From positions 54,336 through 118,335 of the forward strand of contig CAMKAJ010000001.1 in NCBI GenBank assembly GCA_946410455.1: a stretch of DNA of 64,000 nt, written 5' to 3'. The translations under genes and the position numbers were made by a program. Shown here in pieces: positions 2,150 through 39,515 of the stretch. The DNA comes from an uncultured Bacteroidales bacterium (GTDB taxonomy: Bacteria > Bacteroidota > Bacteroidia > Bacteroidales > UBA932). Within the stretch, counting starts at the first letter, position 1. Each line of letters opens with the position of its first letter. The notes beneath the pieces were generated by a model. That model was not told where the DNA came from. It saw only the letters and a list, made by a program, of their open reading frames with translations, and did no database searches.

Positions 2150-3046
2150 TTAAAGTTGTGAAATAATGTCTTCAGATACACCCGCCGATTTGAGTATATC
2201 TGTAATACGCTGCTTTTCTAATGCGGCGCCTTCAATCTTGCCTTCGGCATAACGGTCATCACCGTACTCGAGTCTTTCTTTATCTGAAATCATAGATTTG
2301 AAGTAGTCCATCTTTTCGCTTTCCGGAACCGTTTTCATTCGCGCCGCCTCAACCACCCGGTCGAAGCGCTCGTTCATCCCTTCCGGCTTTCCCGCAAATG
2401 TACAACTTTCCCGGATAATATGCATCCATCCCTCTACAAAATTCATCTCAGACATTGCGACTTTCTGTAGTCTCGGTAGCTCACAGAGGTAAATCGAGAG
2501 CCAGTCGCCGTATACTTCGTGATTCTCCAGCTCCATCATCTGATATTTATAAAGGAGTTGGTTCTTTGAGTGCTTCAGCTTGAAGTCCATGAAACACAGT
2601 ACGTATACCGGCTTAAGCTTGCCGTAGTTGCGCCCTCGCTTTAGCTGACTCCGGACCATGGCGGCGCCGTAGTAAAACATCCTTGCCTTGAAGTCGGTTT
2701 TCTTGAAGCGCTGCATCTCGATAACTATCTCACGATCGTCTTCCGTTCGTGCAACTATATCCATCAACACGGTCTTCTCCGTGCTGTTCAGCCGCTTGGG
2801 TTCGTTGGAAACTGAGACGATGGATGTAATGTTCTCAGGAAGGAAATCGTTCAGGAGGAGCAGCAGGAGTTCCGGGTCAGAGAGAACGTATTTAAACGCC
2901 CAATCACAGCGTAGGTCCAGGAACTCTGTAGAGAGAACTTCTTCTACAATTTGTTCTTTGCGTTCTTCGGGGAGATTTCTGAATTGTTTGATTTTGTTGC
3001 CTTCTGCGATATACTGTCGCATCTTGGCTTCGGATAAGTTTTTCAT
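2150..3046 (-). CDS. Rpn family recombination-promoting nuclease / PD-(D/E)XK putative transposase
   Basis: DLRCDWAFKYV, MDIVARTEDDREIVIEMQ, KPVYVLCFMDF, YLCELPR, EG-rich C-terminus; start set at ATG 3046 (MKNLS). Confidence 0.85.
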   Translation of the reverse strand: MKNLSEAKMRQYIAEGNKIKQFRNLPEERKEQIVEEVLSTEFLDLRCDWAFKYVLSDPELLLLLLNDFLPENITSIVSVSNEPKRLNSTEKTVLMDIVARTEDDREIVIEMQRFKKTDFKARMFYYGAAMVRSQLKRGRNYGKLKPVYVLCFMDFKLKHSKNQLLYKYQMMELENHEVYGDWLSIYLCELPRLQKVAMSEMNFVEGWMHIIRESCTFAGKPEGMNERFDRVVEAARMKTVPESEKMDYFKSMISDKERLEYGDDRYAEGKIEGAALEKQRITDILKSAGVSEDIISQL

Positions 3047-3126
3047 AATTGAAGCAGATTGTTGTTTCTGCTGCAAGTATAGTATAAATCTGGCGATCGC
3101 GAGCGCCCTGAGGGGCGGCGGAATGC

Positions 3127-3165
3127 AGATATTTACGATTCTTTGCAAGATATTTACAATTCTTT
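3127..3165. promoter_or_regulatory. 18-bp direct repeat with 21-bp period upstream of the Rpn gene
   Basis: AGATATTTACGATTCTTT (3127-3144) and AGATATTTACAATTCTTT (3148-3165). Confidence 0.45.
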
Positions 3166-3313
3166 CGATTATTTATGATTCTGTTAAACGGATAGTGTCT
3201 TCCGTGTGTGAATACGCGCATCCTTGCGCCCGGCGTCCTGATAAAAGGGCCGCCAGCCGCAGTCTTTTCAGAGATAGTCCCAGTAGCTGAAGTCTTTTTC
3301 CGGGGACTTAGGA

Positions 3314-3500
3314 CACGAAATACACCAGGACCATCTCCCATTGATTTCGTGGCAGGAAATACGTCGATTTCCTCAGAAATACCGCCACGAGATATACCAG
3401 GGCCTTCTCTCATGGATTTCGTGGCGGGAAAAACGTCAATTCCCTCAGAAAAACTGCCACGAGATACACCAGGACCTTCTCTCATGGTTTTCGTGGCGGG
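3314..3500. repeat. 72-bp tandem repeat (~2.6 units), each unit a hairpin
   Basis: CACGA starts at 3314, 3386 and 3458; arms GCCACGAGAT / ATTTCGTGGC. Confidence 0.9.
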
Positions 3501-7685: not shown

Positions 7686-9125
7686 CTACAGGATAGACTT
7701 TACTGCGGCACGCATGCCTTCCTTCTGAATAAGTGCCAGGTCGGCTGCGAGCAGCTCGCACAGGCCGGGAATGGCGTTGAGGTCTTCGCCCCAGATAAAC
7801 TCATCTGCGAGCACTCCGGAGGCCACTTTGCGTACGTCGCCGGTAGCCCAGAGGCCAGAAAGCAGCTCTACAATCTTAGGATCGTCGTTGGGAACAATCT
7901 CGTCCTCGCCGCGCTTGCCGCCCTTGTAGTAGGTGCAGATGCCGGCCAGGCCGAGCACCAGCCCCTTGGGCAGCTCGCCCTTGCGCTCCAGATAGGTCTT
8001 GAGGCCGGGCAGGTCGCGTGTTTTGAACTTGGGGAAGGAATTAAGCATGATGGAAGTCACGAAGTGCTTCACGAAGGGATTGCGGAAGCGCTCCAGCACG
8101 TCGCCGGCGAACTTCAGCAACTCTTCCTCGGGCAGATTCAAAGTAGGCAGGAGCTCGTCGTACATGACCTTGTGCACAAAAGCGCCGATCTCGGGATCCT
8201 CGCAGCACTCCTTCACGGTGTTGAGCCCGCTGAGATAGCCAACGGGGCTGAGCACAGTGTGGGGGCCATTGAGAAGCGTAACCTTCCTCTCGTGATAAGG
8301 GGCCTCAGAGGGCACGAAGAGCACGTTGAGCCCGGCCTTGTCGGCAGGGAACTCGGCTGCAACCTCCTTGGGAGCTTCGATTACCCAGAGATGGAAAATC
8401 TCTGCCTTGTCCAGCAGATTGTCCTGATATCCAGCCCTCTCGCAGAGCTGTGCGGCGGTATCTCGGGGGTAACCGGGGACGATACGGTCTACCAAAGTAG
8501 AATAAACACCGCAAGCCTCTTCAAACCATGCACGGAAGTCCTCAGGGAGCTGCCAGAGCTCGATGTACTGGCGTATGCACTCTTTGAGGTGCTTGCCGTT
8601 CTCGAATATGAGCTCGCAAGGGAAGATGATAAGTCCCTTGTCGGCGGCGCCGCCAAAGTGCTCCCAGCGGTGATACAGCAGCTGGGTGAGCTTGCCGGGG
8701 TAGGAGCTGGCAGGGGCATCGCTGAGCTTGCATGCGGGGTCGAAAGCGATGCCGGCCTCGGTGGTGTTGGAAATCACGAAGCGTATCTCGGGCTGCTCGG
8801 CCAGCGCCAGGTACTCCTGGAACTGGGTGTAAGGGTTGAGACCACGGGAGATTACGTCTATGAGGTCTACGCTGTCTACAGGCTCTCCGTTCAGGAGGCC
8901 CTGGAGGTTGAGGTGATACAGGCCGTCCTGCTCGTTGAGCCACTCTACCATGCCCTTCTCGATGGGCTGGACCACCACCACGGAGCCATTGAAATCTGTC
9001 TTCTGGTTGGTCTTCCAGATAATCCACTCGATGAATGCGCGGAGGAAGTTGCCCTCTCCAAACTGGATTACTTTCTCTGTGTAGCGCTTCGCCTGAGGCG
9101 CGGAAGTACGATTTAATCTTTCCAT
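7686..9125 (-). CDS. uxaB: Tagaturonate reductase (altronate oxidoreductase)
   Basis: QFGEGNFLRAF, SNTTEAGI, PCELI, LVDRIVPG, LLNGPHT; ATG 9125 preferred over TTG 9134. Confidence 0.93.
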   Translation of the reverse strand: MERLNRTSAPQAKRYTEKVIQFGEGNFLRAFIEWIIWKTNQKTDFNGSVVVVQPIEKGMVEWLNEQDGLYHLNLQGLLNGEPVDSVDLIDVISRGLNPYTQFQEYLALAEQPEIRFVISNTTEAGIAFDPACKLSDAPASSYPGKLTQLLYHRWEHFGGAADKGLIIFPCELIFENGKHLKECIRQYIELWQLPEDFRAWFEEACGVYSTLVDRIVPGYPRDTAAQLCERAGYQDNLLDKAEIFHLWVIEAPKEVAAEFPADKAGLNVLFVPSEAPYHERKVTLLNGPHTVLSPVGYLSGLNTVKECCEDPEIGAFVHKVMYDELLPTLNLPEEELLKFAGDVLERFRNPFVKHFVTSIMLNSFPKFKTRDLPGLKTYLERKGELPKGLVLGLAGICTYYKGGKRGEDEIVPNDDPKIVELLSGLWATGDVRKVASGVLADEFIWGEDLNAIPGLCELLAADLALIQKEGMRAAVKSIL

Positions 9126-9136
9126 ATTGTCCAATG

Positions 9137-12100
9137 TTATTCAGTTTCTTTAACGATAACCAGCAACAAAGCTTGCTCGCTGTTGCCCTGCGCAATGGTG
9201 TATGCGGTGCCCTTCTCGAGGTTCAGCACCCCGGAGTCTCCGATTTCTGAGTAGGGGGTATCAAAGGTTATTGCATCGCCGCCCGCCGGAGTGATTTTTA
9301 TTTTGGCGGTGCTTGCGCTTTCCTTCCTGCGGATAAACCAGAACTGCACGGTAGAGTTCACGGATGCCGAAGTGGTGAAACTCAGTGAGCCGCCGCTGTT
9401 GAGCTTGAGGCCTTTCTTGGATGAGTAATCCCCAATGGTCCATTCGCTGATGGCGTAGTCGCCTCCCAGGTCGGTCTTGGCTGTAGCGGTGAAGTAGCTG
9501 CCTGCAACTCCGTCTGTGAGGTTCACGGCGGCGTTGCTGGAATCGTAATAGAACACATGGGTGCGTGCTCCTGAAGGATCATCGCCGGGCTGATCGGGAT
9601 CGTCGGGATCGTCAACATCGGGGTTGGTGGGATCGTCGTCGGTGCCGTTGTAATCGCTGATACCTCCGTTGTTCACGGCCACAGGAGCCTCCGTCCAGCC
9701 GAGCTTGCCGTAGCCTGCGTTAGCCTTTACCAGTTCGGGCAGGTCAGCCACCGGAGTCACGGTATAAGCATAAGAAGGCTGGAAGTCGGCGTAGGTGAGA
9801 GGAGTCGCGAGCTTCTCTCCGTTGTACTTCTTGTACTCTACGTTGCTCAGCGGATACGGGTCGCGCGCCTTTGAAGGGCGGTTCATGTAGATATTGCCGG
9901 CGGGGTAGAGATAACCGGCCACGGAACCCTGAAGGTTAGACACGTCACCATCCTTTGCAGGATAGGTGCAGATGTCGGTAGGCAGCTGCACTCCGTCGAA
10001 GTAATTGTATTCTACGAGTACCTTTGCGCCGTATGCGGAACCGGCTCCATAAGTGGTGCAGCCGTCGTAGATGTTGTTGTACACGTGGGCGGTGCCAAAA
10101 CGCACGCGCGGGTGTCGCGAGCTGGAGCCGTCGAACCAGTTGTGATGGAAGGTTGCGGTAATCGCGGCGTCGGCGCTGGCGCTGTTGGAGTGCCCCACGA
10201 GGCAGCTCTTCTGCGTCTTGATATAGCGGCACCAGCTCACGGTAACGTTCTTGCTGGCGTGGGTAATGTCTGTGCTGCCGTCCTCGTAGTCCTTGGTCTG
10301 GTTGAGGGAGGTGAAGGAGCAGTGGTCCACCCACACGCCGTCACACTCCTGCATGCTCACTGCGTCGGCGCCGTTGTTGGCCTTGGGCTGCTGGAAGTTG
10401 ATGTTGCGGATGATAATGTTGCTGGCTCTCACGCAGAAGATGCCTATGCGGTCCATCACGAAGCCGTCGGTGCCGTAGAAGCTGAGGTTGCTTACATCCT
10501 TCACGTCGAACCAGGGGTGGGCTTCAGAGAAGTCGCGTCCATCCTCGGGACCGAAAGTGCCGCTGAGCCATATGGTTACGGGGCTGTGATCGCCCTTCTT
10601 CTCGCTCTTGGTGCGGGCGAGCAGCCAGGTCTGGAGGGCCTTGCCGCTGTTGAAGTGCAGCACGTGGTCGGAGTCTGCTGCGTCACCGCCGGTAACATTA
10701 GCAGCGGCCGCGAAGCCTATCATGGCTGTAGCATCTACGCTGCCTTCCGTGGGCTTAAGATTCTCGGGAATCTCCAGATCGGCGCCCTCGGCAGGCTGGT
10801 CGGGCTGATCGGGATCTTCAGGCTGGTCGGGGTCGTCGGGAGTGACGCTGCCGCTGGTCTCGAATACGAGCTTGTAGAAGCGCAGACCGTTGCCGGACGC
10901 ATACACAGTAACGGTTCCGGCCTTCACGTTGAACTCCCTGGTCTCGAGGTTCCCGTACAGAACTACCTCGCTGGTCACCGTATTCTGTGCGTCCTTGACG
11001 CTTACGGTACGGGTGGAGGATTCGTTCTCCGTGTCCTTGGGATTCCTTACGGATACTGAAAGCTTGCCATCAGCAGGAGCGGTGAAGGTGAAGTAGCGGG
11101 TGCTGGTAGAGCCGGCTCCGTTAGACTGGATATACCCGTCAACGGACCATTTGTCGTCCTTGCCAGCGGCGTAGGAGAGGCCGCCGTATGCGACGCCCCA
11201 GTTGCTCGCCTTGGTGTCCTTGGCTGCCGGAGCCTGTGCCTCCAGGGCTGCCTGCCACTCTGCGGTGGAGAAGTCCCAGGTAAGGGAAGTGACCTCGGAT
11301 TTCTTGCTCACGTCGCCATCGGCGATGTTGAAGGTGAGGGTGGGGATCACGCCGGACTGCAGGGCCACGGGTGCGCTCAGAGTCACAGTCCTGGCAACCA
11401 GGAGGTCATCATCGTCGGTCACAACCTCGGCCGTGAGAGTGCTCCCGGCCGCAAGTGTTACGGGGTTCACGATGACGAAGGCGCCGTTCTTGCCGTCGGC
11501 CGCCCAGTCGTCGCCCTCGTATGCGGCAGTCACGTAGTTGTAGCTTACCTTACTGTCCCAGCCGGTGATTTCTGCAGTCTCGATGTTCACGAGCACGCGT
11601 CCGGTAAGGGTCCCGGTGGAAGACCTGAGCGTAACGCTCTTGATCTTCTTGCCGGCGAGTTTGGACTCATTGGTGGCATCGGCGACGACCACCTTGGCAA
11701 CTGCCAGCACGCGGTTGAAGTGGAGCGTGCCTGCGCTCGCAAGGGCTGCATCTGCAACGGTAACGCTGCAGGCGTCGGAAACCAGAAGGTCGCAGGAAGG
11801 ATCGAAGGTGCTGAGGGAAGGGACGTTCTGCACTGCAGGCAGGGCGAACTTGAATGTCGTCTCTGCGCGACCGTCCTTCATATCTTTGGGATAATAGGCA
11901 TAGATGGTGTGCGTGCCGTCGGTGATTTCGAGATTGCCGGAGAAGGAACCGGTCGTGCCGTCTTCTAAGGTGTTCACGAAACTCTTCTGGGCGGTGTAGT
12001 CGCCATCTACCTTGTAGGTTACGTTCATAGCGTCGCCTTTCTGCCATTTGGGCTGCCAGCCGCCTTCCGCAGCTTCTATGAAGGTGCGGGTGCCGGGCAG

Positions 12101-12229
12101 GTCTGCAGTAAGGGTTACACTGATTTCGTGTACTCCGGAGGGAGTTGCTTTTTCCGCCTGCTCCTTAAGCTGGCAGGCGCTGGTCGCCATTGCGGCGATT
12201 CCGAGAATGGAAACAAGTATCTTTTTCAT
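9137..12229 (-). CDS. Multimodular lipoprotein: fimbrillin-like N-terminus, putative CBM, PL1 pectate lyase, C-terminal putative CBM
   Basis: TSAC lipobox; GTRT..W..GD and YAYYP fimbrillin motifs; PL1 motifs NIIIRN, VWVDH, DGSTD, RHPRVRFG; Pro/Asp linkers. Confidence 0.85.
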   Translation of the reverse strand: MKKILVSILGIAAMATSACQLKEQAEKATPSGVHEISVTLTADLPGTRTFIEAAEGGWQPKWQKGDAMNVTYKVDGDYTAQKSFVNTLEDGTTGSFSGNLEITDGTHTIYAYYPKDMKDGRAETTFKFALPAVQNVPSLSTFDPSCDLLVSDACSVTVADAALASAGTLHFNRVLAVAKVVVADATNESKLAGKKIKSVTLRSSTGTLTGRVLVNIETAEITGWDSKVSYNYVTAAYEGDDWAADGKNGAFVIVNPVTLAAGSTLTAEVVTDDDDLLVARTVTLSAPVALQSGVIPTLTFNIADGDVSKKSEVTSLTWDFSTAEWQAALEAQAPAAKDTKASNWGVAYGGLSYAAGKDDKWSVDGYIQSNGAGSTSTRYFTFTAPADGKLSVSVRNPKDTENESSTRTVSVKDAQNTVTSEVVLYGNLETREFNVKAGTVTVYASGNGLRFYKLVFETSGSVTPDDPDQPEDPDQPDQPAEGADLEIPENLKPTEGSVDATAMIGFAAAANVTGGDAADSDHVLHFNSGKALQTWLLARTKSEKKGDHSPVTIWLSGTFGPEDGRDFSEAHPWFDVKDVSNLSFYGTDGFVMDRIGIFCVRASNIIIRNINFQQPKANNGADAVSMQECDGVWVDHCSFTSLNQTKDYEDGSTDITHASKNVTVSWCRYIKTQKSCLVGHSNSASADAAITATFHHNWFDGSSSRHPRVRFGTAHVYNNIYDGCTTYGAGSAYGAKVLVEYNYFDGVQLPTDICTYPAKDGDVSNLQGSVAGYLYPAGNIYMNRPSKARDPYPLSNVEYKKYNGEKLATPLTYADFQPSYAYTVTPVADLPELVKANAGYGKLGWTEAPVAVNNGGISDYNGTDDDPTNPDVDDPDDPDQPGDDPSGARTHVFYYDSSNAAVNLTDGVAGSYFTATAKTDLGGDYAISEWTIGDYSSKKGLKLNSGGSLSFTTSASVNSTVQFWFIRRKESASTAKIKITPAGGDAITFDTPYSEIGDSGVLNLEKGTAYTIAQGNSEQALLLVIVKETE

Positions 12230-12241
12230 CGCTGCAATGGT

Positions 12242-12379
12242 TTAGAAAGTGAAATCGTCGCCGTCGCCGAGGAAGCCGCCGGCACCGTCGTCAACAAGGT
12301 TACTGTCTGCGAGAAGTCCCGCAAGTTCCCACTGCGAGTCTGACTCGCAGGTGGGAGATATGTAGCTGTGTTTAATCAT
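12242..12379 (-). CDS. Unannotated 45-aa YxxP-family small ORF (sORF1)
   Basis: MIKHSYISPTCESDSQWELAGLLADSNLVDDGAGGFLGDGDDFTF*; fills the gap between two genes (2 bp and 12 bp spacing). Confidence 0.7.
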   Translation of the reverse strand: MIKHSYISPTCESDSQWELAGLLADSNLVDDGAGGFLGDGDDFTF

Positions 12380-12381
12380 TG

Positions 12382-13989
12382 TCAATTGCTTGATTCGACG
12401 AGTTTTACAAGTACAAGGGCAAGTTCCTTATTATCCCTTACGATGGTATATGTAGTGCCCTTCTCAAGTGCTATGTCAGTCTGTGATGATACCGTCCCGT
12501 AAGTGTTGAAATTGCCATATACTACGGCAGTACCGCCTTCGGGGGTCAGCTTTATTCGAGCTCCGGAGTTGTCGCCGGATTTTCTGGCTACGTAATAGAA
12601 TGTTAACTTAGAGTTCAGGGTAGAGGAGGTTGTGAAAGAAACAGATCCGCTTCCGTTGAACTTCAATCCCTTGGTTATTGTTAACGACTCTACAGTAAAT
12701 GAATCAGCACCGCAACCGCTGCTGTCGGAGGCAGAGAAAGATACAAGTCCGTTTTTGAGAGTACCTGTAAACTTGTCATTGGTATTGGTCTCTGTGCCGT
12801 CGCTGTTTATGTAATAAAAATAAGTAGTAGCGGACGTTCCGCCTCCCGCACTGGCCTGAGAGACAACCACATTCTTAGTTACGGTCTTGTCTGTGTCGTA
12901 GGTGTAGGTGAGTGTTACGTAGGCATACTTGACACTTGATTCGGTATTAGCCGAGCAGGTGAAGGGAATGCTTCCGTCTGCTATTTCTCCAAGTGCAAAG
13001 TTACTAATGGTATTAACCTTACCATCTGTTGTAGCTGCGCTGAGCACGCCACCGGTAACGCTATTCGCAATTGAATACTCAATCTTTCCGCTGGTGTCGT
13101 CCTTCTTGATATCAACGCCGTTTGCCGTTATCACGGGAGCTGGGGTGATCACTGGAGGACATCCAAGATCGTAAACATAGCCTACAGAAGGGATCAAATT
13201 CTTTACTGCATCAACGGTAGTTGTTACAGGCTTATCTACTCCATTGTGGGTGTAGGTTATGGTTATACCGTTGAGTTTCTGACTGTTAGCTACTCGGGGA
13301 ATAGCGCAGAAATAGTAGTATGAACCCTTTTTGAAGGAGCCCGCTACAGAGCCCATGTCATTGCTTCCGCTGTTGTTTGCGGTGATACTGCCGTTCTCTG
13401 CAGAATAGGCAGGTCTCTTCTGGAAAGCGTTGCTGGTGGCTGCAATCCTAACCTTGGTGATACCGTCATCGGGAATCTGAATCCTGAAATAGCTCACGCC
13501 ATGCCTGAAAACAAACTTTCCTCCGCTAACGGTAGCAGTCATAATGGCGTGTGCGGGATCGTATCCGTTTTCTACAACTGCCTGGGAGGTATAAGTACTG
13601 ATGTTGGAGGCTATTTCTATTGTTGCAGGCAATGAGGATGTTTTGAGTGCATAGCCGGAAGGATAAATGGCCACGTAGCTATCATATGTCCCGAAACTCT
13701 CTCCTTCCTTGAGCGTGAATGTGCCGTTTTTGGTACCGGCTCCGGCGCTGAGCTCAAATACTGCCTTTGCAGCATAAGCATTGTCGGTGCATCCGTAAAC
13801 GTCTATTTTATCACCTGCAGACCAAAGAACGTTGAAGTCTGTATCTATGCTTGTTTTGGTGATGTCCGGCATAGTTGCTTCAAAAGACATTCTCTGCTCA
13901 GGTACAACAGAGATTTCTATCTGCTTTTGGCAGGAAACGATGCTTGCAATAAATGCAATTGCGCTGAAAATAAAACTTGTTCTTTTCAT
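12382..13989 (-). CDS. Fimbrillin-like lipoprotein with BACON-like and C-terminal putative CBM domains
   Basis: Start set at MKRTSF (13989), VSC lipobox; ITKT..W..GDKIDV and YVAIYP; C-terminus homologous to that of the PL1 gene. Confidence 0.75.
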   Translation of the reverse strand: MKRTSFIFSAIAFIASIVSCQKQIEISVVPEQRMSFEATMPDITKTSIDTDFNVLWSAGDKIDVYGCTDNAYAAKAVFELSAGAGTKNGTFTLKEGESFGTYDSYVAIYPSGYALKTSSLPATIEIASNISTYTSQAVVENGYDPAHAIMTATVSGGKFVFRHGVSYFRIQIPDDGITKVRIAATSNAFQKRPAYSAENGSITANNSGSNDMGSVAGSFKKGSYYYFCAIPRVANSQKLNGITITYTHNGVDKPVTTTVDAVKNLIPSVGYVYDLGCPPVITPAPVITANGVDIKKDDTSGKIEYSIANSVTGGVLSAATTDGKVNTISNFALGEIADGSIPFTCSANTESSVKYAYVTLTYTYDTDKTVTKNVVVSQASAGGGTSATTYFYYINSDGTETNTNDKFTGTLKNGLVSFSASDSSGCGADSFTVESLTITKGLKFNGSGSVSFTTSSTLNSKLTFYYVARKSGDNSGARIKLTPEGGTAVVYGNFNTYGTVSSQTDIALEKGTTYTIVRDNKELALVLVKLVESSN

Positions 13990-14002
13990 GATCTTCTCCT
14001 CC

Positions 14003-14146
14003 CTAATTACTCCATATATCTCCAAGGTCTTGATAAGTAAGACCGTCAAGAGACTCAGCACCTGTTCCACTTTCAGCAAGGAAGCACCAGGCGTTTACTA
14101 CTTCCTCCAGTTCTGCCACCGGGGCAGAGTAAATAATTTTCTTCAT
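14003..14146 (-). CDS. Unannotated 47-aa YxxP-family small ORF (sORF2)
   Basis: MKKIIYSAPVAELEEVVNAWCFLAESGTGAESLDGLTYQDLGDIWSN*; 9 bp after the uxaA stop, 13 bp before the next start. Confidence 0.75.
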   Translation of the reverse strand: MKKIIYSAPVAELEEVVNAWCFLAESGTGAESLDGLTYQDLGDIWSN

Positions 14147-14155
14147 TTCAATTTG

Positions 14156-15634
14156 TTACAGCGTCACGCCGCTCTTGAAGATGGCGATTTCGCGGTAGTT
14201 GTGTTTCTCGTTGTTAACCGGCTCTCCCGAGGCGGCGGCCAGTACGGCCTCTATGAATCGCGGGGCTACCTCTGCCATGGTCTGGTCTTGGGCCAGTACC
14301 CCTGCGTTAAAGTCGATCCATCCGCCCTTGAGTTCGTAGAGCGGGGTGTTGGTAGATATCTTCATGGTGGGCACGAAGCTCCCGAAGGGGGTGCCCCGGC
14401 CTGTAGTGAAGAGCACAATCTGGCAGCCGGCTGCCGCAAGGGCGGTGCTGGCTACAAGGTCGTTGCCGGGGGCGCTCAGCAGGTTGAGACCTTTGACTGA
14501 GAGCCTCTCGCCGTATTTAAGTACGCCGCGCACCGTGCTCTTGCCGCACTTCTGCGTGCATCCGAGGCTCTTTTCTTCCAGCGTAGAGATGCCTCCCGCC
14601 TTGTTGCCCGGCGAGGGATTCTCGTACACCGGCATGCCCTGGGCCATGAAGTACTCCTTGAAGTCGTTGATAAGGGCGACGGTCTTGTCGAATGTAGCCT
14701 CGTCCTGGCAGCGGTTCATGAGTATAGTCTCGGCTCCGAACATTTCGGGTACTTCGGTGAGTACGGTGGTGCCTCCCTGGGCCACGATCCAGTCTGAGAA
14801 TACGCCCAGCAGGGGATTGGCGGTGATGCCGCTAAGTCCGTCGGAGCCGCCGCACTTAAGGCCAACGCGAAGCTCGCTCACGGGCACCTCGGTGCGTTTG
14901 TCCTGGGAGCATACGGCGTAAATCTCGCGTAGCTTCTGCAGTCCGAATTCAACTTCGTTCTCTACCTGCTGGCAGGTGAACATCTTCACGCGTGTCTCGT
15001 CCACGGGGCCCACCAGCTCGCGGAATGCATCCAGCTGGTTGTTCTCGCATCCAAGGCTCACCACCAGCACGCCTCCGGCATTGGGATGATGTACCATGTC
15101 GGCAAGGACGGTGCGGGTGTTCTGGTGGTCGCCTCCCAGCTGCGAGCAGCCGTAATTGTGTGGGAATGCGACGATTGCGTCGATGGAGGATGTGCGTCCG
15201 GCGATCTCTTCTTTGAAGCGGCGGACTATCTCTTCGCACACTCCGTTTACGCAGCCCACGGTGGGGATGACCCAGATCTGGTTGCGTATGCCCACCTGGC
15301 CGTCTGCGCGCTTGAATCCAAGGAAGCTGCGGCGCGTTGCAGAAGGCTCGATATCGGTGAGCGCCGGATTGTACTTATACTCCAGCAGTCCCTCCAGGTT
15401 GGTTTTGATGCACGAATGATCCACCATGGTGCCGGCAGCAGCATCGTGCGTAACGTGACCGATAGGGTAGCCGTACTTTATTACATTGTCTCCGGCCTTG
15501 AGGTCGCGCAGCACCACTTTGTGGCCCCGGGGCACATCCATGGAGAGCTCTAAGCCCTCCACGGATTCGCCCTTGGCCAGGTCTGTCAACGCAACGGCCA
15601 CATTATCGTCGGGATTAATCTTGATGTATTTCAT
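14156..15634 (-). CDS. uxaA: Altronate dehydratase
   Basis: SAF domain (DNVAVAL, GHK), PTVGC, HNYGCSQLG, CGGSD, FTTGRGTP. Confidence 0.93.
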   Translation of the reverse strand: MKYIKINPDDNVAVALTDLAKGESVEGLELSMDVPRGHKVVLRDLKAGDNVIKYGYPIGHVTHDAAAGTMVDHSCIKTNLEGLLEYKYNPALTDIEPSATRRSFLGFKRADGQVGIRNQIWVIPTVGCVNGVCEEIVRRFKEEIAGRTSSIDAIVAFPHNYGCSQLGGDHQNTRTVLADMVHHPNAGGVLVVSLGCENNQLDAFRELVGPVDETRVKMFTCQQVENEVEFGLQKLREIYAVCSQDKRTEVPVSELRVGLKCGGSDGLSGITANPLLGVFSDWIVAQGGTTVLTEVPEMFGAETILMNRCQDEATFDKTVALINDFKEYFMAQGMPVYENPSPGNKAGGISTLEEKSLGCTQKCGKSTVRGVLKYGERLSVKGLNLLSAPGNDLVASTALAAAGCQIVLFTTGRGTPFGSFVPTMKISTNTPLYELKGGWIDFNAGVLAQDQTMAEVAPRFIEAVLAAASGEPVNNEKHNYREIAIFKSGVTL

Positions 15635-17049
15635 CAGAAATTAAAGTAATTCTTTGCGTTGTTGTAGCAAATGTCTTCTACCATCTGGCCGATGAAGGGG
15701 AGCTCGCTGGCGGGCAGCTTGCCTTGCTCGATGTCGGAGCCCAGCACGTCGCAGAGGATGCGGCGGAAGTACTCGTGACGAGGGTAGCTGATGAAGCTGC
15801 GGCTGTCTGTGAGCATACCCACGAAGCGGCTCAGAAGACCGAGTACGCTAAGGGCGTCGAGCTGGCGGCGCATTCCGACCTCCTGGTCCAGGAACCACCA
15901 GCCGCTGCCGAACTGCATCTTGCCGGGCACGGTGCCGTCGTTGAAGGTGTAGAGCATGGTCATCATCACCTCGTTGTCCTTGGGATTGAGGCAATAGAGT
16001 ATGGTCTTGGCCAATTTGTCTTCGCGGGTAAGACGGTCGAAGAAGCGGTGGCCAGCAGCAGCAATCTCCTGGTCGTGAATGGCGTCGAAACCTGTATCGG
16101 CACCAACGAGACCGAACATCTTGCTGTTGTTGTTGCGAATGGCTCCGATGTGGAACTGCTGGGCCCAGCCGGCCTCGGCATCCATGACTGCCTGATCGTG
16201 CAGGAAAGCGCTGCGGAACTTCTCAAGATCCTTGGGACCGGGTGCAATACCCATGAGCACCTTCTTGAAGATGAGCTCTATTTCCAGCTCGGTGTAGTCG
16301 GCTGCGTAGAAGTTCTCCAGACCATGGTCGGAGAGCTTGCAACCATTGGCTGCAAAGTAATCGTGCCTCTTCTTCAGAGCCTCCACGAGGTCGGCGTAGG
16401 AGTCGATTTCCTTGTCTGCGGCCTCTCCGAGCTGCTTGAGGTATGCCTTGTAAGCCTTGGGATCCTCGATGGCCATGGCCTTGTCGGGCCTCCATGCGGG
16501 AATAACCTTGGTCCCGAAAGGATGCTCGGCAATCATCTTGTGCCAGCGAAGGTCGTCTGCCGGATCGTCGGTAGTACAAACTACTTCAACCCCGAACTTG
16601 CGGATGAGAGCCTGTCCGCGGAACTCGGGAGTTGCAAGTTTAGCGTTGCACTCCTCAAAAATCTCGCGGGCGGTAGCGGGGCTCAGGAGCTTGTCTATGC
16701 CGAATACCCTGCTGAGCTCTAGATGAGTCCAGTGGTAAAGAGGGTTGCGCATAGTATAAGGCACGGTCTCGGCCCACTTGCGGAAGGTCTCCCAGGAGTC
16801 GTACTTGCCTCCGGTGAGGTAATCCTCGGACACGCCGTTGGCGCGCATTGCACGCCACTTGTAGTGGTCGCCGTAGTGCCCGTCTACCAGCCAGAGCTGG
16901 GTAATGTCGCGGAACTGGATGTTTTCTGCTATCTGCTGCGGTACAAGGTGGCAGTGATAGTCTATGATGGGCATCTTTGCTGCATGCTCGTGATACAGCC
17001 GGCGGGCTGTATCACTTTGCAGCATAAAGTTATCGTTGATAAAAGACAT
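15634..17049 (-). CDS. uxaC: Glucuronate (uronate) isomerase
   Basis: IIDYHCHL, DHYKWRAMR, WWFLDQ, GMLTDSRSF. Confidence 0.95.
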   Translation of the reverse strand: MSFINDNFMLQSDTARRLYHEHAAKMPIIDYHCHLVPQQIAENIQFRDITQLWLVDGHYGDHYKWRAMRANGVSEDYLTGGKYDSWETFRKWAETVPYTMRNPLYHWTHLELSRVFGIDKLLSPATAREIFEECNAKLATPEFRGQALIRKFGVEVVCTTDDPADDLRWHKMIAEHPFGTKVIPAWRPDKAMAIEDPKAYKAYLKQLGEAADKEIDSYADLVEALKKRHDYFAANGCKLSDHGLENFYAADYTELEIELIFKKVLMGIAPGPKDLEKFRSAFLHDQAVMDAEAGWAQQFHIGAIRNNNSKMFGLVGADTGFDAIHDQEIAAAGHRFFDRLTREDKLAKTILYCLNPKDNEVMMTMLYTFNDGTVPGKMQFGSGWWFLDQEVGMRRQLDALSVLGLLSRFVGMLTDSRSFISYPRHEYFRRILCDVLGSDIEQGKLPASELPFIGQMVEDICYNNAKNYFNF

Positions 17050-17050
17050 A

Positions 17051-20000
17051 TTACTTGCTGTGGAATTCTATCTTGAGGAAACGGAGTCCGTTGCCGGTAG
17101 GATAAATCTTTACTGCGCCGGCATCGATATCAAACTCACAAACCGCAGGAGCGGTGGAGGGTACGCCTCCGGCTATGCTCTGGGGCTCACCGTCGTTTAC
17201 GCTCACAGTAACCATGCGGGTAAGGTCTTCGCTGCTACCGGTGTTGGATGCGGTGACGCTGAGCTTGCCTGCACTATTGGCCGTGAAGCTGAAGAAGCGG
17301 TCGCTGCCGTCGCTCTTGCCGCCAGCCTGGATGTAGTACACAGTCTCCTCGTTGATGGTGGCGGTGTTCCACTTGCTCTTCTGGGTAGATGTCCAGGTGA
17401 GTCCGTCAACGGTTGATACCCAGTTGGTTATGTCTGCACCCTTGGCACCCTTTGCTGCAAGCTCGGTCTGCCAGGCCTCGCTGGAGAAGTCCCACACGTA
17501 GTCTTCCTTTGCAATGGGCGGCTGTCCGCCACCGCTGGTAGTCTCCAGATAAGTGAATTCTATCTTGAGGAAGCGCAGACCGTTGCCGGTAGGATAAATC
17601 TTAACTGCACCAGCCTCGATTTCGAACTCGCACACGGTAGGAGCGGTGGAGGGAGCACCTCCTGCAACGCTCTGGGGCTCACCGCCGTTTACGCTTACGG
17701 TAACCATGCGGGTAAGATCCTCGCTGCTTCCGGTGTTGGAGGCAGTTACGCGGAGCTGTCCGGCTGCAGGAGCGGTGAATCTGAAGAAACGGTCGCTGCC
17801 GTCGCTCTTGCCGCCAGCCTGGATGTAGTACACAGTCTCCTCGTTGATGGTGGCGGTGTTCCACTTACTCTTCTGGGTAGATGTCCAGGTGAGTCCGTCA
17901 ACGGAAGATTCCCAGTTGGTTATGTCTGCACCCTTGGCACCCTTGGATGCAAGCTCGGCCTGCCAGTCCTCGCTGGAGAAGTCCCAGGTGAGAGTCTTCT
18001 CTACCGTTACCTCGCCGCCGCCAGCAGGGGCCATAACTGCGAAAGCTACGGTAGCTGCCTCGGATGCGGTGTTGTAGGTGTCGGCTGCGTCGGGGTTTGC
18101 AACCACGGAGACGGTATAGACGCCAGCGGCAAGTGCTGCGGCAGTCTCGGCGTCGATCACGAAGCTGAGCTCCTCGGTGGTGGTCTTCTTCTTGTTGAAG
18201 GTCACGGTGTAGTTTGCAGCGTTTGCAACTGCGCCCCAGCTTACGCTGATCGGGGTCTCGTCGCCCTCGGTGATGCTCTCTACGTCGATTGCGAGCTTGG
18301 GAGCTGCAAGAGCAGTGTTGACTCCTGCAACATCTGCAGACCATGCGAGTGCGGTAATCTTGGATGCTCCGGTAGGATAGAGATACACGAGGCTCTCTTC
18401 GCTGATGCCGGTAAGCACAACCTTCTGAGGGTCTCCGTTGGCATTGGCCACGGCGCCGCCCTTTACGGTAGCTGCACCGCCGTCGGCGTCACCCACGGCA
18501 ACCACTATCTGGCAGCCGTCGGCATCGGGATCCTCCATCTTAATTACCACGGAGCCGTTTTCTGCGGCCTTGAATGCCACGTAGCCGTCGGTAGGTACGC
18601 CCTTCTTGTTCACTGCAGCTGCAGCATTGAAGGAGATTGCGCCGTCGAGATTCATCTTGCGCTCCTCGGAAGCCACGAAGAGCAGGCCGTCGCGCACTTT
18701 GCTCTTCTCCAGGTCGCCTGCAAACAGGGTAGCGTCGCCCAGGTTCCAAACGTGAGGAGCAGCAGTAACGGCCAGGGTGAGGTCTTCTACCGGCTCCACA
18801 TAAGCGTTCCACCATTTTGCAGCACCGACTTGCTTATCCTGAAGGTCGGCGTTGGACAGATGGAAGTTGTTGCCCTTTGCGTTGAAGCAAGGATCGTCTG
18901 CCAGCACCGTAGCGCCTATCTGCGCAGCGGTGAAGTTCTTGCTCTCGCCGAAGAACTTCTCGCCTATAGCGTAGCAGTAGTTGTTGCTGCCGCTTACGTT
19001 GGCAGGGGCGTTTTCGGGGAGGTTGGTGGTTGCCAGCACGGCCTTCTCGCCCTGCTGATACAGGAAGAGATTGTTCTTTGCGCTAAGCGAAGTCCAGGGG
19101 CAACGGATGTAGAGAATGCCCTTGTCGGGGATAGCCACGTTCTTGATGGTGTTGTTCTCCATCACGAAGGCGTTCAGAGAGGTGCTCTTGTCGTCGATAC
19201 GGAAGAACGAACGGAATGCATCGTAAACCGTATTGTTGCGGAAGGTGATGGTGCCGATGGCTGCTGCGTTACGTACGTCAACGCCGTCGCCGCCGCTTCC
19301 GGGGATGTTGTAGATATCGCATCCCTCGATGAGCAGCTCGCCGAGAGTCAGCTGGTCGGCCACGTTGTCGTAGAAGATACCGCAGTTGTAACCGGTAATC
19401 TCGCAGTTGACGAGGCTGATCTTCTCTATGTTGAGCTCTCCGCCCTTATGGTCGATGATACGGCTGCGGGCGGTGCCGTCGAAGTGGATATTCTCAATGT
19501 GCAGGTCTCCGGTGTAACCGACGTTAAGCACTATGTCGCCCTGTACAACGGGACGGCTGCCGTCTGCGGCGTATTCGCCGAGCATGCGGAATCCCTTGGC
19601 TGGAGTCACGCTGCCAACCACGTAAGGGGAGCCCTCGGCGCCCACGTACACGTCGTCACCTGCTGTCATTGCAGCTATGAGAGCCTCGGAAGTAGTAACT
19701 CTGGACAGCGAACCCTGTGCGGGAGCGGTCCATACGGTCACGGCGCCACGGCTTGCGCTCTTGAAGAAGAGCACGATGTCGTACTCGGCAGAAGGAGCCA
19801 GCCCGCCGATAACGGCTGCCGCCGCCTCTGCCTCGGTTGCGTTGAGCTCTTTGCTCACTGCTGCACCACCGGCAACAGGAGTTGCCTCGATATGGGTAAC
19901 GTCCCTGTAATCAGAAGCATCCTTAGACCAGGTGAGAGATACAGACTCGGCGCTCTTGGCTGCAACTACCAGGAAGAGGTTGTCCTTTACGGCGTATGTC

Positions 20001-36782: not shown

Positions 36783-38693
36783 TTACAATGCTGGTTCTTC
36801 CGATATCGATACGCAACGCACAGATGCACCACGGGCCTTGTATGCGTAAGAAGCTGCAGGAGCTACGCCCTTTGCATACATGCAGCGACCTTTTGAGTGG
36901 TTGCTGGAATAACTGGTAGAGCTCCACCATTCTGCACGAACAGAAGGATAGGAATACGAGCCTCCATTGTCATCCATGTATCCAGCCAGAGGGAACACAA
37001 GGTCGCCAAGTGAGCATACAAGATTCTCCGAATCGTAAACCCAATCGCTGCCTTTCCATGCAGGCTGATTTTCATTACGGGCCGGAACCCTGTATCCTGC
37101 AGGGCATGGATCGTAAATGCTCTTATCGCTATCGCTCCATGCAGTGCTGATTTCATCGACGCACCAGTTTCCGCCCTCATAATCTACGTCAGCCTTATCT
37201 TTATCGTAAGCGAACATCGTAGGATTTGCAATAGCCTCGGCAATGGTTATTTGTACGGTAGATTTGCTTGTCGCGGTTCCTGCAATGACAGCCGCAGAAC
37301 TGCTTTTCACAGCTTGGGGACCCGGGAACGGATCCTTGCGGCCCCACTGGTAGAACAAACCGAATGATTCAACTGTGGCGGGTTCGTCGATCTTGGCAGG
37401 TACAAGGGCGCCGAGGTTACGGTCCATTGCTTTGTAGAAACCATACGCGTTGGCATAGAGATCAGAGTTGATGCTGGTCTCGGGAATCCAGATGTGCCAG
37501 CTCCAAATGATATTACCCTCAGAGTCCTTTGCGGCAATGAGGGCGTTGCCGGGCTTGAGGGTTTCGGGAGTGGAGAAGTAGATATAGTTCTCAGGTCCGT
37601 CGAAGTCAACGGCTGCAATAACAGACTTGGCTTCAACTTCAGTGTCGTTGTTGTACGTTTCCCACAGAACTTCTGCACCGAATACATTACCTGCCGAAAT
37701 CTCTTTGTTGTTACCCTTAACAACGGGAAGTTTGTAGGAGCCGGCCGACGTGATTACATAGCAGTTGGCGGCACCGCTTTCGCTGAGGTCTTTCGCATTG
37801 CTGATCCCGGACACGTGGTCGCTGGTGGTAGGAGCCTCGTAATCTTCGAGATTGGTGATTTTGCCAAGATTGAGAAGGCCGTTGCGGGGGATGGTTACAG
37901 TTTTTTCAGTCTTTTTTATCTTGACTGTGCTGTTACCATCTTTGAACTTGAATGTGAAACCCTTGGTGAAGGTTACTCCGTTCGGAATGCAGGCATAGTG
38001 GACGGTGGTGCCGTCGGCATTCAGGGGGGCGCTTATTGAGGTGAGGGGTGTGCCTCCTTTGGTGAGGTTTGTGGACTGGGTACCGTTGGTAGTCCAGTAC
38101 ACCTCTGCCTGATAGCCGTCATAACCAACGACCTCATCATTGTTGCCGTGCAACTCGTAATTGTCGAATTCGCCCTCGACAGAGAATGCTATGAGTCCGC
38201 ACAGGTTGATAAATGTGAATGAGGTTCCATCGGTCTCTTTGTTGTAACCTACCATGAGGGGCGCATTGGAGGTGTTGAAGGGGTGTGTCGCCCTCCAGTT
38301 GGTCGCTCCGTTGTCAGCGGCAACAGCACTGGCCGGATAGATGGCGTAGATATTGGAAGCCTGGTCTCCGGTGGGGGAACCCTTGGTGAAGTCCTCAATG
38401 GTCACGGTTGCTGTTTTACCATCCTGGCTGATATTCGCTTCGCTGAGGGTGGCAGTATAGGAATACTGTCCGCCTATCCATTTGCCGTGGAAAAGAATCT
38501 GGTCGTTGACTTCCCAGGTGACTTTACCGGTGTCAGAAATACCAAGCTTGGTACCTGAGTCTGCAATAGTGCAGGTCATGGTGATGGTCTTGGCGGAAGG
38601 AGTCACATTGATTTCAATGTCATTCTTGTTGCAAGAAATTGCAAGGGCAGCGGCGCAAAGGGCTACGGCTGCAAATTTGATAGCTTTCTTCAT
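36783..38693 (-). CDS. Fimbrillin-like lipoprotein with DRNLGA/YQWGRKDPF domain
   Basis: Start MKKAIK (38693), ISC lipobox; GTKL..WEVNDQIL; ANCY, WSWHIW, MDRNLGA, YDPCP. Confidence 0.78.
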   Translation of the reverse strand: MKKAIKFAAVALCAAALAISCNKNDIEINVTPSAKTITMTCTIADSGTKLGISDTGKVTWEVNDQILFHGKWIGGQYSYTATLSEANISQDGKTATVTIEDFTKGSPTGDQASNIYAIYPASAVAADNGATNWRATHPFNTSNAPLMVGYNKETDGTSFTFINLCGLIAFSVEGEFDNYELHGNNDEVVGYDGYQAEVYWTTNGTQSTNLTKGGTPLTSISAPLNADGTTVHYACIPNGVTFTKGFTFKFKDGNSTVKIKKTEKTVTIPRNGLLNLGKITNLEDYEAPTTSDHVSGISNAKDLSESGAANCYVITSAGSYKLPVVKGNNKEISAGNVFGAEVLWETYNNDTEVEAKSVIAAVDFDGPENYIYFSTPETLKPGNALIAAKDSEGNIIWSWHIWIPETSINSDLYANAYGFYKAMDRNLGALVPAKIDEPATVESFGLFYQWGRKDPFPGPQAVKSSSAAVIAGTATSKSTVQITIAEAIANPTMFAYDKDKADVDYEGGNWCVDEISTAWSDSDKSIYDPCPAGYRVPARNENQPAWKGSDWVYDSENLVCSLGDLVFPLAGYMDDNGGSYSYPSVRAEWWSSTSYSSNHSKGRCMYAKGVAPAASYAYKARGASVRCVSISEEPAL

Positions 38694-38709
38694 AATGCAG
38701 TCCTCCTTT

Positions 38710-38838
38710 TTACCAAGAAAAATCACTAATGAGTTCATAATCCTCTGTGGTTGCAGAGTCGCTCTCACAGAGCATGTCCAGATAAGACATAGGCAGCAAG
38801 TCTATATCCGGGCTTACATAACGTTGTTCTTTTTTCAT
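38710..38838 (-). CDS. Unannotated 42-aa YxxP-family small ORF (sORF3)
   Basis: MKKEQRYVSPDIDLLPMSYLDMLCESDSATTEDYELISDFSW*; A-rich initiation region; first gene after a promoter-like element. Confidence 0.8.
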   Translation of the reverse strand: MKKEQRYVSPDIDLLPMSYLDMLCESDSATTEDYELISDFSW

Positions 38839-38874: not shown

Positions 38875-38897
38875 TTGCAAAATTATTTGTTTTGCAA
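38875..38897 (-). promoter_or_regulatory. -7 promoter element within an inverted repeat, upstream of sORF3
   Basis: Minus TAATTTTG (38878-38885) inside TTGCAAAA-N7-TTTTGCAA. Confidence 0.55.
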
Positions 38898-39018
38898 CCC
38901 ACCCGAGCGCATAATGCGTATTTGTACTCCCATATCGCGCAAATTTAAGATCCGATAAGCTTATTAAGGGTCAGCGGAAGAAGTGGATGGAGTAGCTTTA
39001 GGAATAAATGACCTCTCT

Positions 39019-39132
39019 GGTGATCCCGTAGGAAGGACTTGGGGTTGATTTGGGATCACTGGAGGGTCCTGGTGATCCCGTTTGCCATGTTTTCTGCCGT
39101 TTTGGGATCACTGGAGGGTCCTGGTGATCCCG
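39019..39132. repeat. 52-bp tandem repeat, family A (second locus)
   Basis: GGTGATCCCG at 39019, 39071 and 39123; GGGATCAC-N12-GTGATCCC hairpins. Confidence 0.9.
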
Positions 39133-39172
39133 TAGGATATTCCGGAGCGGCACCGCCGCCGCGACTGCGGAT

Positions 39173-39347
39173 GTTTCCGTTCCTACCCCCTCAGCAACAT
39201 GGGACGGCGGGCGCAAAAATGCCGGTTTCCGTTCCTACCCCCTCGGCAATATGGGACGGTGGGCGCAAAAATGCCGTTTTCCGTTCCTACCCCCTCGGCA
39301 ACATGGGACGGTGGGCGCAAAAATGCCGGTTTCCGTTCCTACCCCCT
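39173..39347. repeat. 52-bp tandem repeat, family B (second locus), ~3.4 near-identical units
   Basis: TTTCCGTTCCTACCCCCT...GGGACGG..GGGCGCAAAAATGCCG with units at 39173, 39225, 39277 and 39329. Confidence 0.92.
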
Positions 39348-39515
39348 TCGTTTCGCCGCGGCGGGAGTGTCGCTGGCGGCTAAACCGCAGTCAATCACGG
39401 TGTTATGGCTTTTGCCTGCAAGAAAAAACGTGCAGGCAAAAACAATAATTGGCTAATAATCAGTATGTTGCGCGCCAGGGCAGCATTTTTTATTCTTCCG
39501 TAAGTTTGCAAATGG

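Follow-up and report, generated by a model that had tools for sequence, protein, structure and literature searches.

Within a 64,000-nucleotide stretch of genome from an uncultured Bacteroidales bacterium (GTDB lineage UBA932; GenBank assembly GCA_946410455.1, contig CAMKAJ010000001.1, positions 54,336 to 118,335 of the forward strand; hereafter the window), three small open reading frames (sORFs), termed s1, s2, and s3, each stand directly ahead of a gene for a surface lipoprotein. The resulting bicistronic layout is conserved, under selection, and tightly spaced; the sORF has a start region of the ordinary kind, whereas that of the lipoprotein gene is atypical (Table 1). We tentatively read each pair as a translationally coupled two-cistron module, the small peptide of which may serve in the cytoplasm as a partner of the pre-lipoprotein.

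Table 1. Coordinates of the sORFs, their junctions, and the genes that they precede (window numbering; aa, amino acids; nt, nucleotides).
Feature	Coordinates	Strand	Description
sORF s1	12242..12379	-	ATG at 12379, TAA stop at 12244-12242; 45 aa, MIKHSYISPTCESDSQWELAGLLADSNLVDDGAGGFLGDGDDFTF
s1-to-lipoprotein junction	12230..12241	-	ACCATTGCAGCG; no Shine-Dalgarno box
1030-aa lipoprotein	9137..12229	-	N-terminal Mfa_like_1 domain and PL1 pectate lyase (PF00544, E=3.9e-33)
sORF s2	14003..14146	-	47 aa, MKKIIYSAPVAELEEVVNAWCFLAESGTGAESLDGLTYQDLGDIWSN; TAG stop; start 10 nt past the uxaA stop
s2-to-lipoprotein junction	13990..14002	-	GGAGG at 14002-13998, right after the stop; 8-nt spacer; ATG at 13989
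535-aa surface lipoprotein	12382..13989	-	Signal peptide and Cys20; Mfa-like N-terminal domain through a homology chain; weak CBM77-like C-terminal module
sORF s3	38710..38838	-	42 aa, MKKEQRYVSPDIDLLPMSYLDMLCESDSATTEDYELISDFSW; TAA stop; first open reading frame 3' of the promoter-like box
s3-to-lipoprotein junction	38694..38709	-	GGAGG at 38706-38702; 8-nt spacer; ATG at 38693
Promoter-like box	38878..38885	-	TAATTTTG; 40 nt 5' of the s3 ATG; kept in related locus L016
636-aa lipoprotein	36783..38693	-	N-terminal domain homologous to those of the s1- and s2-linked lipoproteins; weak C-terminal Fib_succ_major match

None of the three sORFs had been called as a gene in the source assembly. They were first proposed from the bare sequence, and this original prediction has proved sound in its particulars: the coordinates and the stop-to-start spacing were recovered on the minus strand, with 12 nt separating the s1 stop from the lipoprotein ATG (at 12229), 13 nt for s2, and 16 nt for s3. 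The motifs had likewise been read correctly. Y-x-[SA]-P occupies residues 6-9 in s1 and s2 and residues 7-10 in s3, and is followed by Glu or Asp three residues past the Pro; the Ser of L-[AC]-[DE]-S is residue 26 in all three peptides; and the acidic tails end in FTF, WSN, and FSW. A profile scan of all six frames of the window found no fourth copy, and, as claimed, no SusC/D, BACON, or plain carbohydrate-active enzyme gene of the window has an sORF upstream.

The peptides belong to no annotated family. Pfam and NCBIfam scans gave no match even at an E-value of 10, and the ~75 distinct relatives (42-50 amino acids) gathered by database searches are unnamed or labelled 'hypothetical protein [Bacteroidales bacterium]'. 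Word-indexed protein searches returned near-identical relatives only; an exhaustive profile search gave 10 matches, two of which (P0010 and P0014) were discarded as artefacts of repeats with no relation to the family. Alignment of 54 peptides showed Y6 and P9 to be invariant and E12, L23, and S26 to be nearly so. The s1 type comprises ~58 distinct relatives with the conserved core LLxGSDLTDDGAGxFLxxGxE[FY]x[FL], and orthologues of the s3 type are P0006, P0045, and P0047, with loci L015-L018. As read from the sequences, none of the ~75 peptides has a hydrophobic segment or signal sequence and all are acidic, so the peptides should stay in the cytoplasm.

The DNA retrieved covers 27 distinct lineages (12 of the s1 type, 13 of the s2 type, and two of the s3 type), in all of which the frames are intact. 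At the first, second, and third codon positions, s1-type sequences have mean pairwise identities of 0.70/0.69/0.46, s2-type sequences of 0.66/0.62/0.52, and s3-type sequences of 0.86/0.81/0.52, third positions being clearly the least conserved. The proportion of nonsynonymous differences (pN, 0.2-0.45) lies below that of synonymous differences (pS, 0.5-0.87), with synonymous sites near saturation. This comparison, of the dN/dS type, upholds the proposal that selection acts on the peptide and confirms that the sORFs evolve as coding sequence and constitute a real family rather than chance reading frames.

Homology between the types was assessed with profiles built without the target type. A profile of s1-type sequences alone recovered s2 at E=1e-3, and one of s2-type sequences alone recovered s1 at E=9e-5. 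The weakest link of the family is s3: a profile lacking s3-type sequences misses it, and a profile-profile comparison of the s3 and s2 types gives 70% probability (P=4e-5). For these reasons its membership is rated as probable rather than proven, with further support from the identical genomic layout.

A new observation concerns the junction between the two genes. In all 13 s2-type and both s3-type lineages, the sORF stop is followed by 0-5 nt, a Shine-Dalgarno (SD) box of the form GGAGG(A), a further 7-8 nt (6 in one lineage), and the true lipoprotein start, ATG-AAR-AAR; a fragment designated L007 shows the same arrangement. The s1-type junction lacks an SD box and carries CAGCG-ATGAAAAAG, which is kept in 11 of 12 lineages. 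Across all lineages, the distance from stop to true lipoprotein start is 9-16 nt. Comparison of the window with locus L016 shows a single base difference in the s3 junction (A or T, just before GGAGG); every other position between the TAA stop and the ATG is shared, in contrast to the many third-position changes within the s3 sORF itself.

The window and 33 loci were also scanned for GGAGG-N5-10-ATG sites opening a reading frame of at least 100 amino acids. All 19 distinct sites at true gene starts belong to lipoprotein genes behind an sORF, 18 of these sORFs being recognisable members of the family; the four remaining sites are internal ATGs. No GGAGG was found at ~28 other gene starts of the window or at the other called genes of seven related loci. 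The start regions of the sORFs themselves are A/T-rich and lack an SD box, as is usual for Bacteroidia; the DNA upstream of them is 43% A and 12% G. Those of the lipoprotein genes, in contrast, are G/C-rich and lack the A-rich Bacteroidia signals present at sORF starts.

The nineteenth site of the scan, a divergent case that lends support to the layout, lies in locus L008. Here, a 60-amino-acid sORF (3123-3305), situated behind a terminator-like hairpin (region 3040-3330), is joined to the gene of a second lipoprotein (546 amino acids) by the same TAA-GGAGGA-ATG junction. This sORF escapes the family profile; its product nevertheless has Y..P followed by L..S at the exact family spacing and ends in IWS. 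A frameshift or read-through product fusing sORF and lipoprotein was also considered and was rejected because the frame relation between the two is not conserved: s1-type gaps measure 11, 12, or 13 nt, and although s1 of the window is in frame with its lipoprotein, s2 and s3 are out of frame with theirs.

The conserved SD boxes are unexpected in this lineage. Bacteroidia ribosomes have been reported to ignore SD sequences (PMC7797042, PMC9976891, PMC6728339), which are counter-selected in Bacteroidia genomes, the known exceptions being autoregulated ribosomal protein genes (PMC7797042, PMC9976891, PMC13000453). According to one survey, Bacteroidetes do not use SD sequences even for re-initiation at overlapping or coupled gene pairs (below 10%; PMC6728339). 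The SD-dependent translation of rpsU and rpsR by specialised Bacteroidia ribosomes (PMC9976891, PMC7797042, PMC13000453) shares with the sORF junctions a rare, conserved SD at canonical spacing. The two would seem to differ in SD strength, rpsU offering extended pairing (below -13 kcal/mol) and the visible core at the junctions spanning 6-8 nt (GGAGGA, GGGAGGAG); moreover, the junction SD always comes right after the stop of a dedicated sORF, and the genes served encode surface lipoproteins rather than ribosomal proteins. With termination-reinitiation pairs (PMC6728339), the junctions have in common a very short gap and a downstream start without signals for fresh initiation, although all 15 s2- and s3-type junctions carry the SD that such pairs in Bacteroidetes are reported not to use.

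The window comprises two polysaccharide utilisation loci (PULs), one for pectin (~4.3-33 kb, with a LacI-type regulator) and one of N-glycan/chitin type (34-63 kb). Both s2 and s1 are placed between the hexuronate genes uxaC-uxaA and a mannitol-dehydrogenase-family gene, all of which encode cytoplasmic enzymes. Two surface lipoprotein genes are embedded among such genes (7686-17049, minus strand), and the order is kept in every related locus fetched. In the second locus, s3 follows a 680-nt intergenic region, and its upstream box TAATTTTG fits the Bacteroides -7 promoter consensus, TAnnTTTG. Between this box and the stop of a GH18 lipoprotein gene lies an insertion of ~570 bp (38960-39515) with two different 52-bp tandem repeat arrays (39017-39137, 2.3 copies; 39173-39347, 3.4 copies); it is missing from the orthologous locus L016, where the gap is 112 nt.

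The downstream genes of the relatives were tabulated, as the original prediction had suggested, and every examined copy, whether from the window or from a locus of an independent assembly, stands directly ahead of a gene opening with a lipoprotein signal peptide. The inspected contexts amount to three orthologous positions and one fragment. In the pectin context, the order is DUF4957 protein, uxaC, uxaA, s2-type sORF, lipoprotein of ~530 amino acids, s1-type sORF, PL1 lipoprotein of 1000-1230 amino acids, mannitol-dehydrogenase-family gene, and MFS transporter. The s3 type follows two BACON genes, a gene for a 611-amino-acid protein, and a GH18 gene, and precedes a lipoprotein of 643-847 amino acids. 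In the fragment, L007, a peptide resembling s1 and s2 lies ahead of a different lipoprotein.

A scan of a genome collection with the 535-amino-acid lipoprotein gave a single locus, carried by the metagenome-assembled genome Bacteroidales bacterium UBA1197, and a metagenome scan with the s2-type alignment gave five loci, all of them the same pectin locus, with no further genomic context. This DNA occurs in sequencing runs of ruminant (bovine, goat, and sheep) and other gut metagenomes. In four independent DNA runs, contigs cover the entire s2-lipoprotein-s1 region, with no listed difference inside either sORF. Metatranscriptome contigs, of low depth, bridge uxaA into s2 and s2 into the lipoprotein gene, which shows that the three are co-transcribed; these RNA contigs are silent on translation. 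Searches of the literature for small reading frames associated with PUL lipoproteins or with fimbrillin-like proteins gave no relevant result.

All of the downstream proteins open with MKK, a hydrophobic stretch, and [AS]C[QN], as expected of a lipoprotein signal peptide with its Cys. Their earlier description as fimbrillin-like stands in the strict sense for the pectate-lyase lipoprotein, whose N-terminal 310 residues pass the PF13149 model (Mfa_like_1, 'Fimbrillin-like') at E=7.8e-8 and with 33.1 bits, the cut-off being 27. For the remaining five N-terminal domains of this kind in the window there is no Pfam match; a chain of BLAST matches (E 1e-4 to 1e-9) joins them to the PL1 domain and to each other. 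Three of the lipoproteins with this domain have no sORF (41449-43257, 39516-41441, and 34168 to ~36768); each starts 14-18 nt past the preceding gene, and two are 35-39% identical to the lipoprotein behind s3. An AlphaFold2 model of the domain from the six window paralogues was poor (predicted local distance difference test, pLDDT, 48.7), and its best Foldseek match, the Bacteroides 'cell adhesion protein' BF1858 (3t2l; E=0.012, TM-score 0.31), is for that reason taken as a hint only. A PDB sequence search with the domain alignment returned nothing significant.

Both sORF-linked lipoproteins of the pectin locus end in a module of ~145 amino acids (12382-12820 and 9137-9570, minus strand), the two copies being 37% identical to each other. 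The copy in the 535-amino-acid protein gives a weak CBM77 match (E=0.01), and a related repeat occurs twice in a DUF4957/DUF5123 protein (17051-18000, minus strand) and once in the middle of the pectate lyase. The module is probably pectin-binding, and the 535-amino-acid lipoprotein is probably a pectin-binding surface protein.

Comparison with a near-identical strain (locus L001) showed that the middle lipoprotein behaves as an exchangeable cassette flanked by sORFs: when 12382-14100 of the window is compared with 1730-3450 of L001, the gene is seen to be swapped for a homologue of 32% identity. Both crossovers fall within sORFs. In s2, the DNA is the same up to and including codon 16 and diverges thereafter; in s1, it differs over codons 1-8 and is the same from codon 9 onwards. 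The tail of s2 thus travels with its own lipoprotein. Separately, DNA runs X4 and X12 differ from the window in a 360-bp patch of the 535-amino-acid gene (12837-13194), where ~30 clustered substitutions, many spaced at multiples of 3 nt, lie between near-identical flanks; this looks like a short recombination tract.

These observations can be accommodated by a module in which the sORF would be the first cistron and ribosomes finishing it would re-start on the lipoprotein gene, aided by the SD box or, in the s1 type, by the CAGCG box. Peptide and pre-lipoprotein would thereby be made together and in a fixed ratio, and the peptide could then act in the cytoplasm on its cognate pre-lipoprotein, or on the delivery of the latter to the export machinery, in the manner of an escort. 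The shared N-terminal half (K-x-x-Y-x-x-P-x-x-E, a helix at ~11-24, and LLxxS) may provide a generic contact, and the type-specific acidic tail with its terminal aromatic residue a cognate-specific one. A partner role is favoured, at somewhat less than even odds, because selection spans the whole peptide. It is favoured also because the invariant residues lie in the N-terminal third, remote from where an arrest motif would act and, once the ribosome has arrived at the stop codon, from the peptidyl-transferase centre. Finally, the tail is type-specific: the C-terminal 15-20 residues differ among the three types, the tail was swapped along with the lipoprotein gene between the near-identical strains, and the terminal aromatic shifts between the last and the third-from-last position, so that its distance from the stop is not fixed. 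Modelled with AlphaFold2 from an alignment of 54 sequences (pLDDT 65, predicted TM-score 0.18), the peptide has one helix at residues 11-24 with extended ends and no globular fold, as would fit a peptide that folds upon binding a partner.

Small dedicated partners are well known, among them the signal-peptide-binding export chaperones NapD and TorD and subunits such as KdpF. The sORFs resemble these in being encoded beside a presumed client and in their proposed co-translation at a fixed ratio. They have no sequence or fold similarity to them, however, and their peptides are far smaller and largely disordered.

Several points weigh against such a partner. Translation of the sORFs is predicted, and a binding partner is hypothetical. 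Three paralogous lipoproteins of the window do without an sORF, two of them 35-39% identical to the s3-linked protein, which implies that a dedicated escort is not a general requirement of the N-terminal domain. The co-inheritance of tail and lipoprotein would also be expected from plain linkage, and the retention of the layout in L008 without recognisable similarity of the peptide hints at a greater importance of the layout than of the sequence encoded. Moreover, the predicted link to pilin-like lipoproteins, while true of every copy, rests on only three or four independent genomic positions in one ruminant-gut lineage, and three of the six such lipoproteins in the window lack an sORF.

The strongest competitor is a purely cis-acting leader, in which the sORF exists only to be translated, the terminating ribosome controls re-initiation on the lipoprotein gene, and the released peptide has no role; in a variant, the terminating ribosome may be slowed or sensed through the nascent peptide. 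Of the functions initially put forward, that of a translational leader has gained the most new support. The fixed gap, the boxes conserved within it, and the conserved peptide length (42-48 amino acids) all speak for it, as do the divergent sORF of L008, which retains the layout without similarity of the peptide, and the paralogues that, placed closely behind another lipoprotein gene, need no sORF. Set against this are amino-acid selection along the entire peptide and the position of Y6, P9, and E12, which at termination would be at or beyond the tunnel exit. Variable C-terminal residues and stop codons mean that the peptides share no arrest motif, and the s2 and s3 regions, folded as single sequences (z=-1.36 and -1.03), do no better than shuffles, leaving no RNA structure to remodel. 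In addition, s1 sits behind a lipoprotein gene that could itself serve as the upstream cistron. On balance, we regard a leader without a role for its peptide as somewhat unlikely.

Regulatory leader peptides and upstream cistrons are exemplified by SecM-secA, TnaC-tnaA, and SpeFL-speF. As in these systems, the transcript carries, directly ahead of a gene, a short reading frame whose translation should determine that of the gene. SecM is, moreover, linked to protein export, although it has a signal sequence and the sORF peptides have none. Unlike arrest leaders, the sORFs share no arrest motif placed at a constant distance from the stop and have no intervening hairpin or Rho site (the spacer spans only 9-16 nt), and their peptides are conserved over the full length, most strongly at the N-terminus. 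Judged from its sequence features, the module would appear to work most like a coupled upstream cistron or leader, yet it fails the tests for the arrest-peptide class. The peptide family is previously undescribed; an upstream coupled small reading frame is of a known kind.

A further proposal concerns the SD box. SD pairing may have been harnessed by a module of the form micropeptide ORF-stop-GGAGGA-8 nt-ATG, such that ribosomes fresh from the peptide, or altered by it, start the lipoprotein gene; we consider this rather unlikely. Another reading, in which the peptide modulates the ribosome itself, for example by binding the very basic bS21 or by otherwise freeing the anti-SD, so that the SD-led lipoprotein message becomes readable, seems improbable. 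In its favour, ribosomes without bS21 do translate SD-led messages (PMC9976891), and acidic peptides here co-occur with an SD box in a lineage reported to be SD-blind. The s1 type, however, has the best-conserved peptide and yet no SD box, and type-specific tails are ill-suited to a single common target.

The YxxP motif also evokes lasso-peptide leaders, in which it is bound by RRE/PqqD domains, and with it the notion of a precursor of a ribosomally synthesized and post-translationally modified peptide, or of a secreted signal, recognised by a maturase encoded elsewhere in the genome. The invariant Y-x-x-P near the N-terminus of a short peptide, the Cys conserved in the s1 type, and a tail rich in Asp, Glu, and Thr lend this some appeal. 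The original prediction had found no maturase in the window, and this is now extended to related neighbourhoods. Pfam scans of the large reading frames revealed no RRE/PqqD, protease (including leader peptidase), cyclase, radical-SAM, ATP-grasp, or export gene in the 64 kb, and the called genes of related loci are PUL and hexuronate genes only. Furthermore, the three dispersed copies are each tied to a lipoprotein gene and none to an enzyme. A lasso-like role is thus unsupported, and we think it highly improbable.

Still less can be said for an in-trans donor strand or periplasmic chaperone completing the pilin-like fold of the lipoprotein, as had been put forward. The downstream Mfa-like domain and the aromatic peptide ends speak for it. 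The peptides are strongly acidic and lack a signal peptide or hydrophobic segment, the predicted structure is a helix rather than a strand, and paralogous lipoproteins manage without a peptide; there is only a slight chance that this proposal is correct. Equally remote is the view that the sORFs are no genes at all but chance reading frames, decayed remnants, or a conserved RNA element: although they are very short, were not called in the assembly, and in the case of s3 are weakly linked by profile, this view is largely refuted by the coding signature (intact frames, third-position divergence, and pN below pS), and an RNA element was dropped because the whole window has no Rfam match and shuffled sequence folds as well as the s2 and s3 regions do.

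Two further features of the window lie apart from the sORFs. A reading frame of 1196 amino acids (59258-62848, minus strand) combines GH2-type domains (residues 25-430) and Ig-fold domains (to ~820) with a C-terminal alkaline phosphatase domain (872-1140, E=4e-68), a fusion that is unusual for a glycan locus. At the edge of the pectin locus, a reading frame at 2150-3148 (minus strand) matches the PD-(D/E)XK nuclease family transposase model PF12784 (E=2.7e-37).

Annotation routinely overlooks small proteins, the three sORFs being a case in point. Although confined to three or four loci of an uncultured ruminant-gut lineage, the family offers a clean, conserved case from gut Bacteroidales of a micropeptide gene welded to surface-lipoprotein genes inside PULs. 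The junction provides a natural test bed for when Bacteroidia ribosomes read an SD and for how large surface lipoproteins are made or escorted before export. If the SD-gating proposal is true, it would represent a new way to gate lipoprotein synthesis in an SD-blind lineage. If the sORF is a leader only, the layout would still be a new regulatory one, whereas a peptide serving as dedicated partner would add a new player to the lipoprotein biogenesis of the phylum.

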